IMG/VR virus record: IMGVR_UViG_2547132077_000004
Coordinates: 1-43,781 of that record
Length of the DNA: 43,781 nucleotides
Direction: 5' to 3' (one strand)
DNA from: a virus
Taxonomy: Duplodnaviria > Heunggongvirae > Uroviricota > Caudoviricetes
Shown: piece after piece, positions 22,109 through 27,622 of the stretch
Position numbering within the stretch: the stretch's first letter is position 1
How the letters are laid out: each line of letters opens with the position of its first letter
Program-made: the position numbers and the translations under genes
Notes under the pieces: model-generated
The model's input: the letters and a program-made list of their open reading frames with translations, nothing else
Database searches by the model: none
Told to the model about the DNA's origin: nothing

Positions 22109-22633
22109 ATGAAGTTATGGCCTGTGTTGACTGGCATTGCACTCTCTTTCACTCTTATAGCATGTAAGGCCCCGACACCACCTAAAGGTGTGCAGCCGAT
22201 TACAAATTTTGACGCCAACCGCTACCTCGGAAAGTGGTATGAAATAGCTCGCCTCGAGAACCGGTTCGAACGTGGTCTGGAACAGGTCAGCGCTACTTAT
22301 GGAAAACGGAACGACGGAGGGATTCGTGTACTTAACCGTGGATACGATCCAACGAAAAATAAATGGAGCGAGAGCGAAGGTAAAGCATACTTTACTGGAG
22401 ATACTAAAACTGCAGCGTTGAAGGTTTCGTTTTTTGGCCCCTTCTATGGTGGCTATAATGTAATCAAACTGGATGATGAGTATAAGTATGCTCTTGTCAG
22501 TGGTCCGAACAGAGAATATCTATGGATTCTGGCAAGGACCCCAACTATTCCAGATAAAGTAAAAGCAGACTATGTGCGAACCGCTCAAAAGTTGGGATTC
22601 AATGTCAATGAATTATTATGGGTTAAACAATAA
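22109..22633 (+). CDS. blc: Outer-membrane lipocalin (Blc-like lipoprotein)
   Basis: 174 aa; signal peptide with lipobox (LIAC); NFDANRYLGKWYEIARLENRFERGLE and KVSFFGPFYGGYNVI match the bacterial lipocalin Blc signature closely. Confidence 0.85.
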   Translation: MKLWPVLTGIALSFTLIACKAPTPPKGVQPITNFDANRYLGKWYEIARLENRFERGLEQVSATYGKRNDGGIRVLNRGYDPTKNKWSESEGKAYFTGDTKTAALKVSFFGPFYGGYNVIKLDDEYKYALVSGPNREYLWILARTPTIPDKVKADYVRTAQKLGFNVNELLWVKQ

Positions 22634-23750: not shown

Positions 23751-24037
23751 GCCTTAATTACTCCCTCTTTCAGCCAGATAACCTGCGTTCTCGCCATACC
23801 TTCCAGCGCGCATTCTTTTGCATATGCAGCATCGACAAAATGTGTGCGGCGGTCGATTTCGTCGTGGCAGGCAGAACATGCAATGGTGGCAATCAGGTCT
23901 GGCGGTTTGGTACCGGTGCCGCACAATCCAGTCAGCCGGATATGTGCCAGTACAGACGTTTCAGGGTTGCCATTACATACGCCAGGGATTCTTACCTGGC
24001 ATTCCCGACTACGCGCTGCTTTTCTCAAATCAGCCAT
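23747..24037 (-). CDS. YbcO-like DUF1364 putative nuclease
   Basis: 96 aa from [10 protein letters not shown], preceded by AGGAGG; Cys/His metal-binding pattern (C..C...H...CSAC). Confidence 0.6.
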
Positions 24038-24200
24038 GATTCCTCCTTGCTGCCAGTCGCAACCATTTTTTATCAACCAGGCTGGCGGTATATCCGAGCA
24101 GTGTTGGTATTTCGGAAGGCTTCAGCTCCGGTTTACGCTTACGACGATCTGGTACTCTGTAGATGTGTCCGTTCATGACACGAATAAGCGGTGTAGCCAT
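24030..24200 (-). CDS. ninE: NinE-like small protein
   Basis: Hand-translated 56-aa ORF ([30 protein letters not shown]...[13 protein letters not shown]), below the ORF-track cutoff; start overlaps the upstream stop (TAATG) and stop overlaps the ybcO-like start. Confidence 0.5.
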   Translation of the reverse strand: MATPLIRVMNGHIYRVPDRRKRKPELKPSEIPTLLGYTASLVDKKWLRLAARRNHG

Positions 24201-24655
24201 TACGCCTCCTGCTTGTCGCGGAGCAGCTGGAACTCGCAGCTCTGCGGAATAGTCAGGTGGCAGCCAATATTCACCGCCCAGGCTTCAACCTTACACAGGA
24301 AGACATACATCTCTCCGGTATCAAGATCGGAGGTATGGCGTAACGACTGGATAGTGGTGATATCACCGGTTACGACATCAACCAGGTCTTTGGTTTCATA
24401 ACCGAGATATGTGTGTTTGAGAGCATCTTTTACCCAAGCTGGAGTAGCGAACGTTTTACCCCTGCTGATGAGGTATTCACTGATTTCGCTGTACCACATG
24501 TGGCTGAGTGCATTCTGGGAAAGACTGCGTTTCTCACGCCACGGTTTAAGCACCATGCGAAAGCATTTGCCCTCCTCCAGATAAGGCTGGATCTGCCGAC
24601 CGATAGCGGTGAAGTTACCGCGATGTAATTTGATGCCATCTTGTGGGAGATTCAC
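24200..24655 (-). CDS. NinB/YbcN-like recombination protein
   Basis: 151 aa; position and size match the first gene of the DLP12 nin-like block. Assignment by synteny and length. Confidence 0.5.
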
Positions 24656-24842
24656 GCTTCACCTCCGCAGAGGTCAAACGCTGGATACAATATATCGCAG
24701 GTGCATTTCTGCATCTGTGGAGGGAGAAGAGAGTTTGGATTGTGTGTGCGCATAAACGTCCCCGTTTAGCGCAGAAGTCACCGGAGTTGTTCAGGCTCCG
24801 ATGACATGATTATGGCGAGTTGATTATCGCAAATCAAAGGTT

Positions 24843-25199
24843 TTAATTGTGCTTTATTCCTTCAAGCGTTGCCTTCATACCAACCAAAGAAATGTTTAGC
24901 TCTCCAACTTTCTCAGGGCTATATAATTCAGAATGAAGCCAATATTCTGATTTATCTAAACATCTTTTAGCCAGCTCTCGATCAAAGTCTATGACTTGGG
25001 AAGACGCTTCATACCAAAGCCTATAAAGTTTTTCTTCTTCGTTTGGGTTATTAGGCTCACCACGTTTTAATTTTTCAGTATATAAAATTGTTGAATAAAT
25101 CGCAGGAGTTAATCCAGTGATTGCCCTCTGCCGCAGATCGGATTTGTTTGTTATCCACCCCAACAGACGATCTCCCATCCATGTGATAATTGTATCCAT
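24843..25199 (-). CDS. Hypothetical protein, AT-rich, no recognisable domain
   Basis: 118-aa ORF with a 460-bp ORF-free upstream region; composition differs from the lambda core. Confidence 0.4.
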   Translation of the reverse strand: MDTIITWMGDRLLGWITNKSDLRQRAITGLTPAIYSTILYTEKLKRGEPNNPNEEEKLYRLWYEASSQVIDFDRELAKRCLDKSEYWLHSELYSPEKVGELNISLVGMKATLEGIKHN

Positions 25200-25660
25200 G
25201 CTTTAGCCCTTCTTAGTAAATAGTGTGTAGGGCGACTGAAGGACCGAGTTTATGCTTTTTCGCATTGCTTTCAGTTAGTACACCGGTATCGCACCGGAAA
25301 CAATCCTACGGCAAATTGGTTGTCTGACCTCTCGGTTTTTCGTGCATTAACCGATACCCACTACAGTCTCGGCGAAAGCTGCACACCCCCAGGGTGTACT
25401 GGTAGCACTCGGCACAGCCTAGCACGCCACTTTCTTCTCACTATCCAGTCTAATTTTATCCCCTAGTCAGACACTCAGATGTAGTGCTCCGCAGCGGCAT
25501 GCGGGGGAATACAAAAACTCGGACAAAATTGGGCCCTCCTTTTTGAATCACTCGCGGGGATGTAGTTATTAATACATGGAAAAAGATCTGTTTTCAAATC
25601 CAACATTATATGGTTTCAATACCACGGGGTGGCTATGTGTTTCTCATTGTTAATTGGAAT

Positions 25661-25984
25661 CTACTGTAATCGATCCGAACGTAAATGCGGCAAAACTCGA
25701 CTCCACTTATCATCCTGCCACGGCCGGAATTTTACATGTGCCGTTTCTCTGGCAAGGATTGCCTGTGCCTTATTGAGTATCTGGGGATATTCTTGCTCGA
25801 TAGAAGTGAAGCGACCAGCTTCACGATGCTCCGCAACCTGAAGAAGAGGAGTAACGTTCTGGTAGGTAATTAACATCACATTCCCTGCTCGCCATAACCA
25901 GGCGAGTGTGCAAAGTTCGTTATCAGTGAATTGTTTTGTGATTGGGTATTGTTGAACTGCTAGAACGAGAACGCCAGCATCCAT
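25661..25984 (-). CDS. Hypothetical protein, possibly a gene remnant
   Basis: 107-aa ORF with no recognisable motif beside a stretch with no ORF of 60 aa or more. Confidence 0.3.
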   Translation of the reverse strand: MDAGVLVLAVQQYPITKQFTDNELCTLAWLWRAGNVMLITYQNVTPLLQVAEHREAGRFTSIEQEYPQILNKAQAILARETAHVKFRPWQDDKWSRVLPHLRSDRLQ

Positions 25985-26095
25985 TGGCAGTCTCTATAGT
26001 AAAACCATAGCTCAGGACGCTTCGTTCAGGATAGATAATTTTATTGTACTTACCTAACTTTCTTACTATAGCACGGTTGAAAAAGTGATTATTAC

Positions 26096-27622
26096 TCAAA
26101 AATAAACCTCACCATCAACCATATATTTGAGAGTACTTATCGCCTGCTGGGCGGATATTGTTTTCATTAAAGGATAGTGTTTAAAAACAATGCCATTCAT
26201 AAAATAGATATCACAGGTTTTATTATCTGTATTGATTATGATTTTTTCGAATGTTTTATAGGCAAGTGTACGACATAGCTCTCGCCCATTTTTACTGGTT
26301 AAGTCAATAGCATGAAAATCACCAAGTGAACTCACCGCTTTACTCTTCAAAGTTTTTAATGATACAGAAGCCCTTCGTAATTCCTTATCTAATACTCTGA
26401 TTTTTTCTGCTATAGCGGTAACTTCAGGCGCAACAGATAATGCAGCAATTAAATTATTAATTTTCATCTGGAGCTCAATAATTTTCAACTCTAAAGTTTC
26501 ATTAGCATCTTTCTTGTTTTCAACTGGTTGGATTTTACTACAATTAAAAAGCAACTCATTAATGATATTATAATCAACCAAATCTCTCTTTATTGATGGC
26601 CTGTCACATCGATGCAGTCTTCTCATCGGACAAACATAATAGCCATACAAACTTCCAGATACCGCATGAACAATCATGGTATTACCACAAGCCTCGCACT
26701 TCATAACTGTTCGAAGTAGATTTATCAACATAGGATTTTTGCTACTATTGCTAATACCAAAAGGTGCCAACCGAATTTCCTGTACAGCGTAAAACAAATC
26801 ATCTGATATGACTCTGGGATAATAGCCAGCGATTTCACTTATTCCTTTACCTCTTGCACGATATGAAGGTACGCATATACCTATCAGAGCTTTATTCGCT
26901 AATAATTTTTCAATTACAGAAGGTCCCCATGCACTTTCTTTTCCTGAGAAATTCTTTACAGCATGATCATTTAAATACTTGGCTATTGCATTCAATGAGC
27001 GCCTTTCCATCCTGAGTTTAAAAATTAGCTCAATAGTTTTCACCCTGTCGGGGTCTGGAACAAAAGCCGTTCTTTTGTCATCTAAGGAGAGCCATCTCGG
27101 ACAAGACGCCGTCATAATCGTACCTGATTCCAGTGCATCCTGCCGTTTTTTCTTCCATGATAATTTAACCCGACTTGACTTTATCTCGCTTTCTTCATTT
27201 GCCCTTTGTGCTATAAGTATGGCTTTTATTAATGAATATGGCTCATTCAAAGAGTCAATATTATAGACTGTATTGTCGCAAAGAGTTATAACATCAATAC
27301 CGTGATTCAAAATCAATTTCAGACGTTCAATCGCTTCACCGACTTTTTCTCTTGAAAGTCTGTCCAGACTTTCAACTAACAATGTAGTTCCTGGCAATAT
27401 ATAACCATGCTCTATAGCATCTAAAAATTCCGAAAAAGCTCCTGATTGTGCATGCTTTCCTTTGAATGCACTTAATCCTAAATCTTCATATGTTATGGTA
27501 TCAAGATAATAATCACTATTTACCTTTAACCATTCAGCAATAAGTCTTCTCTGTCGGTTTAATGAGTCGCCAGACATCTGACCTGGTGATGAAAATCGCA
27601 TATATGCTATGGCTTTTTTCAT
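26096..27622 (-). CDS. Large serine recombinase (YbcK-like)
   Basis: 508 aa; N-terminal resolvase catalytic domain (IAYMRFSSPGQ, nucleophile Ser), recombinase domain, Cys-rich zinc-ribbon (CEACGN...C..C) and C-terminal coiled coil; AT-rich. Confidence 0.8.
   Translation of the reverse strand: MKKAIAYMRFSSPGQMSGDSLNRQRRLIAEWLKVNSDYYLDTITYEDLGLSAFKGKHAQSGAFSEFLDAIEHGYILPGTTLLVESLDRLSREKVGEAIERLKLILNHGIDVITLCDNTVYNIDSLNEPYSLIKAILIAQRANEESEIKSSRVKLSWKKKRQDALESGTIMTASCPRWLSLDDKRTAFVPDPDRVKTIELIFKLRMERRSLNAIAKYLNDHAVKNFSGKESAWGPSVIEKLLANKALIGICVPSYRARGKGISEIAGYYPRVISDDLFYAVQEIRLAPFGISNSSKNPMLINLLRTVMKCEACGNTMIVHAVSGSLYGYYVCPMRRLHRCDRPSIKRDLVDYNIINELLFNCSKIQPVENKKDANETLELKIIELQMKINNLIAALSVAPEVTAIAEKIRVLDKELRRASVSLKTLKSKAVSSLGDFHAIDLTSKNGRELCRTLAYKTFEKIIINTDNKTCDIYFMNGIVFKHYPLMKTISAQQAISTLKYMVDGEVYF

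Follow-up and report, generated by a model that had tools for sequence, protein, structure and literature searches.

The 43,781-nt stretch of DNA analyzed here (IMG/VR record IMGVR_UViG_2547132077_000004; hereafter "the window") is a DLP12-like lambdoid prophage of Escherichia coli whose early-right genes lie on the minus strand. Among its nin-region genes, in a segment poor in open reading frames (ORFs), is a 332-nt element (positions 25230 to 25561) that we hold with high confidence to be a real, selected and structured RNA on the minus strand. The best overall explanation for it, which we modestly favor, is a non-coding RNA gene that has its own signals, acts in trans and binds protein. Lambda-like phages of E. 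coli have been studied intensively, so an unannotated structured RNA of 332 nt in their nin region would be unexpected.

In the order of transcription, the region comprises O, P, a ren-like gene, emrE, ylcJ and ybcK (26096-27622), then the ORF-poor region, then a ylcH-like ORF, ybcN (ninB-like), ninE, ybcO, rusA, ylcG and quuD. An earlier reading of the window, made from its letters and ORF list (the sequence-only reading), had described positions 25200-25660 as free of any ORF of 60 aa or more, relatively high in GC, and different in gene content from DLP12. All three descriptions were borne out: the largest internal ORFs are 48, 43 and 39 aa, the GC fraction of the segment is 0.49-0.52 versus 0.34-0.39 in ybcK and the gene for a 118-aa protein on its other side, and the DLP12 of strain K-12 has ybcL and ybcM between ybcK and ylcH/ybcN. 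The K-12 prophage also has an unannotated 465-nt gap between ybcK and ybcL (4430-4893 of L121, where L plus a number labels a phage, prophage or metagenome locus), and nhmmer finds no copy of the RNA there. The same reading had offered a decayed gene, a long 5' leader or a structured non-coding RNA as explanations, and had pointed to short inverted repeats. Such repeats are present (GGTATCG/CGATACC was found), but they are neither above chance nor conserved: nine perfect inverted repeats of at least 7 nt were observed versus 6.2 +/- 3.2 in 300 dinucleotide shuffles, 67 of which had at least as many, and both of the repeats named are specific to the window's clade and lack covariation in relatives. 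What strongly supports the structured RNA is instead covariation, an asymmetry of G-U over A-C combinations, sharp boundaries, and the promoter-like and terminator signals that flank it.

Comparison with other genomes defined the extent of the element. Megablast with the locus identified identical copies in E. coli chromosomes and in phages Turner and IdasGreatGrand, as well as two Klebsiella phages that match positions 25226-25561 only, at 79.6% identity. Alignment with Klebsiella phage Kp4856-1 (79% identity) and with a prophage of E. coli 3426 (83%) yielded a gap-free block of 332 nt, within which conserved and variable patches alternate and beyond which the flanks are wholly different. Because these matches are confined to approximately 25230-25561, the element constitutes a discrete module. 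Copies are present at ~95 phage, prophage and metagenome loci with 76-100% identity, always in the nin region and usually between differing genes. Among 5,426 complete E. coli genomes, 159 have the element (at least 98% identical in 158 of them) and none has it annotated; the plasmid search found no plasmid copy. Pattern scans yielded the element in 66 contigs of IMG/VR and in 28 from metagenomes, and two further lineages, in Obesumbacterium proteus (L106) and Enterobacter bugandensis (L108), were reached through neighbors of the 118-aa protein. When distant relatives were sought by pattern scans of IMG/VR, GTDB representatives and metagenomes, every true match was at least 76% identical; the extra pattern matches were due to chance, and nhmmer found no element in them. 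The family is real but narrow, belonging to lambdoid phages of Enterobacterales (those of E. coli, Klebsiella and Enterobacter among them).

The element and its structural parts are listed below; RNA position p corresponds to window coordinate 25562 - p.

25230 to 25561, minus strand: conserved 332-nt structured non-coding RNA, delimited by its boundaries with Kp4856-1 and E. coli 3426 and supported by near-gapless alignments, covariation and a strand test.
25458 to 25561, minus strand: 5' domain (RNA 1-104), closed by helix H1 (AUCCCC/GGGGAU, 97% paired) and containing helices H2-H5, from covariation.
25234 to 25450, minus strand: 3' domain (RNA 112-328), closed by 112-117:323-328, from the per-pair covariation table.
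25481 to 25486, minus strand: loop of H5 (RNA 76-81), the 5' arm of a kissing helix, from an unbiased scan of column pairs.
25359 to 25364, minus strand: loop of H11 (RNA 198-203), the 3' arm of the kissing helix, from an inverted repeat and the column-pair scan.
25466 to 25471, minus strand: 5' arm of a candidate second long-range helix (RNA 91-96, UCUGAC), from an 8-nt perfect inverted repeat.
25323 to 25328, minus strand: 3' arm of the same candidate helix (RNA 234-239, GUCAGA), from the same inverted repeat.

RNAalifold predicts 81 base pairs for the element, which we refined to 85 nested pairs; the structure has about 17 helices in total, in two domains. Covariation was evaluated across 22 distinct variants for a set of 91 pairs, consisting of the 85 nested pairs and the six pairs of helix 91-96:234-239. 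In this set 97.0% of pairs are canonical, versus 32-46% when the 3' partners are slid by one to three columns. Double changes affect 16 pairs and 116 cells, compared with 1-7 pairs and 4-17 cells in the slid controls, and the covariation score is 0.214, compared with 0.04-0.06 after sliding and with 500 shuffles of which none reached 0.214. Compensatory changes are well above positional controls, the general mark of a structured RNA. The best-covarying helices of the 3' domain are 128-136:180-188, 138-139:155-156, 189-197:204-212, 226-231:314-319 and 259-269:275-284. Clean pair switches occur at 130:186 (AU 12, GC 10), 138:156 (CG 11, AU 10) and 139:155 (CG, GC or GU); pair 196:205 shows five pair types, and 269:275 is AU, CG or UA. 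Two copies held out of the analysis preserve the fold: in Obesumbacterium (L106) 78 of the 85 pairs are kept and 10 of 13 changed pairs are still paired, and in Enterobacter (L108) 83 of the 85 are kept. G-U combinations fill 239 cells and A-C combinations 5, and canonical pairing is 97.8% in the sense orientation versus 85.8% in the antisense orientation. The 239:5 asymmetry establishes that the folded strand of the gene is the minus strand of the window.

The two domains are connected. A model-free scan of all column pairs for stacked covarying helices ranked the helix between the loops of H5 and H11 (76-81:198-203) second; it is 98.5% paired, versus 21-46% when slid, with compensated pairs at 77:202 (AU 11, GC 10) and 79:200 (AU 10, CG 6, UA 6). 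The RNA has a compact two-domain fold joined by this covarying loop-loop helix and is not a string of hairpins. Helix 91-96:234-239, which may add a second tie between the domains, is 99% paired yet invariant, such that covariation neither supports nor refutes it.

The element does not encode protein. Variable columns are distributed 48/48/56 by position modulo 3 (p = 0.66), without codon periodicity, and each reading frame contains stops in some variants. One antisense frame is open across the element in 7 of 22 variants; the rest have one to four stops in it, and an indel puts the L004 group out of frame. A Shine-Dalgarno sequence precedes a single ORF, of 19 aa and lying behind the motif AAAGGAGG, which was rejected because the L006 group has a TGA within it and L068 a frameshift. 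There is no conserved small ORF of the kind that a hok-like type I toxin mRNA would carry, and the 19-aa candidate is not hydrophobic. ARAGORN detected neither a tRNA nor a tmRNA.

Promoter-like and terminator signals lie at the ends of the element.

25592 to 25597, minus strand: TTGAAA, a -35-like hexamer that precedes the first conserved base by 31-36 nt, identified by eye in the flank alignment.
25568 to 25576, minus strand: TGTATTAAT, an AT-rich -10-like sequence with TG at -15/-14, from which a +1 at A25561 is predicted.
25598 to 25620, minus strand: conserved ~20-nt block, AAACCATAT..TTG.., upstream of the -35-like hexamer, from the flank alignment.
25200 to 25229, minus strand: 30-nt spacer without a terminator, containing the ribosome-binding site AAGAAGGG of the ORF for the 118-aa protein, read from the sequence.

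Both hexamers are common to all lineages. The -35-like hexamer reads TTGAAA, TTGAAT, TTGATA or TTGTAT, the sequence of the 17-18-nt spacer is unconserved, and the -10-like hexamer is TATTAA(T), TTTAAT or TTAAAT across lineages, with the first conserved base, A25561, following 6-7 nt later. In relatives, the AAACCATAT block begins directly after the stop codon of whichever gene is upstream, and it could be an UP element or an operator. At the 3' end, conservation stops at approximately position 332, where most lineages continue into a GC-rich hairpin and a run of T; a terminator scanner calls intrinsic terminators immediately after this boundary in L049 and L009, and further ones can be seen when the flanks are aligned. 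Four lineages, that of the window among them, lack the terminator, and in these the start of the 118-aa ORF is 30-35 nt downstream.

Several further features of these regions were observed. Between 25577 and 25624, copies of the window clade have a 13-nt palindrome (center AGATCT) overlapping the -35-like hexamer, a direct repeat of 17 nt by which the TTGAAAC motif is duplicated, and a perfect TATAAT upstream at about -48. Other lineages have an operator-like inverted repeat, ACCATA-N5-TATGGT, in the same promoter-like block. Inside the RNA, H11 followed by UUUUGGUU is called terminator-like by the scanner in some variants (328-347 of L049 and 2012-2031 of L009); the likeness may be fortuitous or may mark an internal site of pausing or termination.

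The genes on either side of the element vary. The gene upstream of the RNA belongs to at least nine unrelated families and the gene downstream to at least five, after which the backbone resumes with ninB; the RNA and ninB flank a site at which accessory genes are swapped. Within 9 kb on either side, no protein family is common to all RNA-bearing loci. The genes found downstream, which also include DUF1367, are as follows.

24843 to 25199, minus strand: 118-aa ORF ("c1"), immediately downstream of the RNA and co-oriented with it, PHROG 12412 (unknown function).
L048, L049, L064, L066, L081, L084 and L102, ~50-60 nt past the RNA terminator: 178-aa protein with two transmembrane (2TM) helices, one N-terminal and one C-terminal.
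L003, 3400 to 3951, minus strand of that locus: 183-aa protein with an RHNLLH motif, PHROG 27260 (unknown function).
A 177-aa protein for which no family was found.
A 95-aa protein for which no family was found.

The RNA is better conserved than the gene beside it. In close pairs from the window clade, the RNA is 98.5-99.1% identical versus 75-85% for the 118-aa gene, which has 70-131 gap columns; in distant pairs, the corresponding values are 80-82% and 70-73%. Coverage of the 118-aa gene falls to 66%, at 90-95% identity, in ~60 of ~160 E. coli genomes. Conservation of the RNA while its neighbor decays indicates selection that is independent of the neighboring gene.

Our data are best explained by an autonomous RNA "moron" that could be expressed by the prophage in a lysogen. 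The minus-strand transcript would be ~332 nt long, on the same strand as the surrounding nin-region genes, and would start at A25561 from its own sigma-70-like promoter (TTGAAA, a 17-18-nt spacer, an AT-rich -10 sequence and a further 6-7 nt). In most relatives, transcription would stop at the intrinsic terminator just past position 332; in the window clade, the 118-aa ORF would have replaced the terminator, such that the RNA doubles as the 5' untranslated region of that gene. We suggest that the RNA acts through its folded shape, not as a message or a short antisense seed, and that it acts in trans on a protein of the host or the phage, serving as a decoy, sponge or scaffold in conflicts between phage and host or between phages. 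RNAs this large and complex are usually ribozymes, ligand sensors or ribonucleoprotein scaffolds. The argument proceeds by elimination: the RNA is too large and knotted for a seed, it has no repeats, and its complementarity within the prophage is not above chance (the best antisense targets inside the prophage, of 12-13 nt, are at chance level), which together point to fold-based action in trans on a protein. The element sits at a hotspot for swaps of accessory, toxin-like genes and is kept intact when its neighbor decays. Culturable phages (Turner and IdasGreatGrand) and many sequenced E. coli strains carry it, so its function is directly testable.

Several observations weigh against this explanation or parts of it. 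The trans-acting, protein-binding mechanism is argued from architecture and elimination, and we consider the case for that part evenly balanced. The promoter-like motif was read by eye, and a consensus scanner, which requires the -10 hexamer to have A as its second and T as its sixth base, rejects it in the window, L049 and L003; the 5' end could instead be produced by processing of the rightward (pR) operon transcript. The scanner finds no terminator on the minus strand of the window, which leaves room for a leader role for the 118-aa ORF there. No GTDB species representative has the element, and the family is narrow, with roughly seven lineages. With so few lineages and with mosaic recombination among variants, fewer independent events took place than the covariation counts imply; the shuffle control ignores relatedness. 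Finally, the folding energy of the single sequence is ordinary (sense strand, z = -0.79, a fold equaled or bettered by 25 of 100 shuffles; antisense strand, z = -0.19); the sequence of the window by itself gives no evidence for an RNA.

The main alternative is that the RNA is a cis-acting leader or attenuator, a sensor of riboswitch or T-box grade that gates the accessory gene through a terminator or through translation. A non-backbone gene in the same orientation always follows directly after the RNA; the order of promoter, RNA, terminator and gene recurs in at least eight variants, and four lineages fuse the RNA to the 118-aa ORF. Kissing loops are typical of riboswitch aptamers, and genes such as those of the downstream 2TM family, one member of which UniRef names "SMODS and SLOG-associating 2TM effector", and of the RHNLLH family might well require strict regulation. 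The five downstream families are mutually unrelated, however, and share no pathway or function. Other lambdoid prophages in which nhmmer finds no RNA encode homologues of the 118-aa (51% identity) or the 2TM protein (33-51%), and the RNA is still ~99% identical where the 118-aa gene is deleted or frameshifted. By inspection only, no alternative terminator/antiterminator pairing is conserved across the terminators. Persistence of the RNA beside unrelated or decayed genes counts against a dedicated leader. The long 5' leader offered by the sequence-only reading thus holds in a physical sense in the window, where the RNA is the 5' untranslated region of the 118-aa ORF, but as a general account it is a minority reading, since most relatives end the RNA at a terminator of their own and the RNA stays intact where the 118-aa ORF has decayed. 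We consider a leader function unlikely.

We also rejected the idea that the downstream genes depend on the RNA, as their homologues occur without it, often behind a DNA_pol3_theta-like gene. A bolder proposal is that the RNA represents a new class, a large RNA with tertiary structure of ribozyme or riboswitch grade in lambda-like E. coli phages, whose fold would serve a dedicated biochemical task in the arms race between phage and host. It might sense an infection signal and gate the toxic effectors encoded behind it (2TM/SLATT-like or HEPN-like), or it might disarm a host ribonucleoprotein such as the type I-E Cascade/Cas6e complex, whose repeat stem it reproduces; we regard this proposal as improbable.

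A narrower form of the latter role is an RNA decoy that resembles an anti-CRISPR. Phage-encoded repeat mimics that inhibit type I-E, I-F, I-C and V-A systems have been documented (PMC10651486), as have prophage-borne arrays of type I-E-like CRISPR RNAs (crRNAs) in Salmonella (10.1101/2024.10.29.618823), and phage RNAs that imitate repeats are known to prevent Cascade from assembling (PMC10651486; 10.1101/2024.10.29.618823). H1 and H2, stacked, would mimic the type I-E repeat hairpin and 3' handle, so that the RNA would bind Cas6e or be cut by it and cause Cascade to mis-assemble. The K-12 type I-E repeat in the crRNA sense, read from the genome, is GAGUUCCCCGCGCCAGCGGGGAUAAACCG, and the RNA pairs U2-A103, C3-G102, C4-G101, C5-G100, C6-G99, G7-C61 and C8-G60 are the seven pairs of the repeat stem, in order. 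The RNA then runs on with AUAAA (window clade) or AUGAACC (other lineages) where the repeat has the crRNA handle AUAAACCG. This likeness was noticed after the fact and involves ~12 independent bases. In the RNA, 37 inserted nt split the 3' strand of the repeat and a multi-helix arm stands in place of the tetraloop; a contiguous full repeat, as in the RNA anti-CRISPRs (Racrs), is absent, with a match of a 7-bp stem plus 5-7 nt of handle whose halves are 88 nt apart. The conserved 3' domain of ~220 nt is left unexplained. Klebsiella type I-E repeats differ from those of E. coli, and the Klebsiella phage copies share the sequence; in L068 and L092 the helix is broken. Pfam and PADLOC scans revealed no known anti-CRISPR (acr) gene nearby. 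Together these points make such a decoy very unlikely.

It is less probable still that the RNA is a type III-like antitoxin that neutralizes a toxin-like downstream protein. The order of promoter, RNA, leaky terminator and putative toxin gene fits the ToxIN layout, in which promoter, RNA, terminator and toxin follow one another, but Tandem Repeats Finder returned no rows at a score of at least 30, direct repeats do not exceed 8 nt, and a single RNA would have to serve at least five unrelated proteins that also occur without it and have no PADLOC match.

A role at the DNA level, whether as an origin, as a packaging signal or as a site at which the YbcK serine recombinase would act in recombination or attachment, is close to refuted. 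The element is ~0.5 kb from ybcK in the window and its sharp boundaries coincide with mosaic junctions; against this, most copies have no ybcK nearby, the 239:5 asymmetry is a signature of single-stranded RNA, and 332 nt of compensated helices is unlike a short imperfect palindrome. Any link to YbcK was rejected, given that most copies lack it. A decayed protein gene (the first option of the sequence-only reading) or a neutral spacer kept by recent ancestry is effectively refuted: the antisense frame open in a minority of variants and a young, narrow family are in its favor, but that frame has stops or an indel elsewhere, no frame is conserved, codon periodicity is absent, the element is more conserved than the flanking coding DNA, and compensatory changes are unexpected in neutral DNA.

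Turning to the neighboring genes, the statement of the sequence-only reading that neither flanking ORF has a recognizable family proved wrong for one of the two. The 118-aa ORF has no Pfam or PADLOC match, though it belongs to a PHROG family, and has only 21 homologues among 5.8 billion proteins, all from Enterobacterales; its AlphaFold model is a generic four-helix bundle (pLDDT, the predicted local distance difference test score, of 80) with no Foldseek match in PDB below E = 0.26. Among the window's 118-aa gene and its copies in the L011, L025, L058, L087, L096 and L100 groups, those of one E. coli sub-clade have a variable G run (GGGGGG, GGGGGGG or AGGGGG) and an internal deletion, so that an ORF of only 66 aa remains; the RNA, 30 nt upstream, is still ~99% identical; the variation in the G run could be real slippage or assembly noise. 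The other flanking ORF did prove recognizable.

25661 to 25984, minus strand: 107-aa ORF, an N-terminally truncated remnant of a Bro-N plus P22_AR_C antirepressor-like protein, from Pfam and alignment.
25985 to 26095, minus strand: 111-nt spacer that separates the ybcK stop codon from the truncated antirepressor ORF, from the sequence and the ORF list.

The 107-aa ORF matches P22_AR_C (PF10548) with E = 1.1e-15 and 57.9 bits versus a cutoff of 22.4, and its RefSeq name agrees. A 202-aa Bro-N plus P22_AR_C protein encoded upstream of the RNA in L026, with Bro-N at residues 17-100, shares 84% identity with it over residues 100-202, and the 107-aa ORF lacks that N-terminal domain. The DNA between 25884 and 26100 matches the region flanking ybcK in lambda-like phages, and the truncation that removed the N-terminal domain of the 107-aa ORF falls at a mosaic junction with the ybcK segment.

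Among the other downstream proteins, the 178-aa 2TM protein has 148 homologues, one of which is named by UniRef as a "SMODS and SLOG-associating 2TM effector" domain protein; diverged 2TM genes (L122-L130) are single genes elsewhere in lambdoid prophages, often behind a DNA_pol3_theta-like gene. The 183-aa protein occurs only in Klebsiella phages Kp4856-1 and Kp4862-1 and has no Pfam or PADLOC match; its RHNLLH motif is reminiscent of HEPN ribonucleases.

Two further ORFs of the window merit description. A 33-aa ORF (24652-24753, minus strand) lies between the 118-aa gene and ybcN, at the position of ylcH in K-12, and is annotated as "hypothetical protein" in strain AH65. A 174-aa ORF (22109-22633, plus strand), on the opposite strand just past the Q-like antiterminator, encodes a lipoprotein signal and the GKWYEIAR motif of bacterial, Blc-like lipocalins. 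In strain AH65, whose prophage is nearly identical, an ompC/nmpC-type porin gene occupies this place.

The RNA does not correspond to a described family. The search of Rfam that the sequence-only reading had proposed was run with release 15 and matched no family: there was no match at E <= 1 in 24000-27000, none in five variant loci, and none at gathering score in the whole window. This result places the RNA outside described families and does not argue against its being an RNA. Literature searches found no paper with its signature sequence strings, and those on lambdoid, nin-region and prophage RNAs returned unrelated small RNAs only; we found no RefSeq or GenBank record that annotates the element.

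Comparison with known systems reveals partial likenesses. Riboswitch and T-box leaders share with the element a complex aptamer-like fold and a loop-loop contact followed by a terminator and an ORF, but the genes downstream of the element have no common function, the RNA outlives the ORF, and no switching helices were identified in it. ToxIN, CptIN and TenpIN likewise have a promoter, an RNA, an intrinsic terminator and a protein gene, as many copies of the element do. The antitoxin RNAs of type III systems are tandem direct repeats of ~34-45 nt that are processed into units, whereas the element is not a tandem array and the proteins downstream of it are unrelated to ToxN-type endoribonucleases. 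The GOLLD and ROOL RNAs are roughly 580-800 nt long. Like them (10.1101/2024.12.08.627333), the element is a large, highly structured, phage-associated RNA recognized by covariation, but it is 332 nt long and belongs to lambdoid phages of Enterobacterales, while GOLLD and ROOL come from Firmicutes and lake metagenomes, and it does not match their models. Racrs and phage crRNA-like RNAs (PMC10651486; 10.1101/2024.10.29.618823) resemble it as phage RNAs that carry the stem pairs of a host repeat and part of its handle. Racrs differ in being contiguous, solitary repeats of tens of nt, compared with a split stem within a 332-nt fold that has no adjacent acr. The small-RNA morons of prophages (DicF of Qin, IpeX of DLP12, the anti-sRNAs AgvB/AsxR, and IsrK of Gifsy-1) are 3-6 times shorter than the element and consist of a seed and a terminator hairpin, compared with ~17 helices and a kissing loop; the element matches none of their Rfam families, and its complementarity to targets in the window is not above chance. 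They are nonetheless alike in being autonomous non-coding units between backbone genes with promoter-like and terminator signals of their own. The element is a new RNA family. It differs in size, fold and host from both of its nearest counterparts in kind, the autonomous RNA genes of prophages and the large, "ornate" RNAs of phages.

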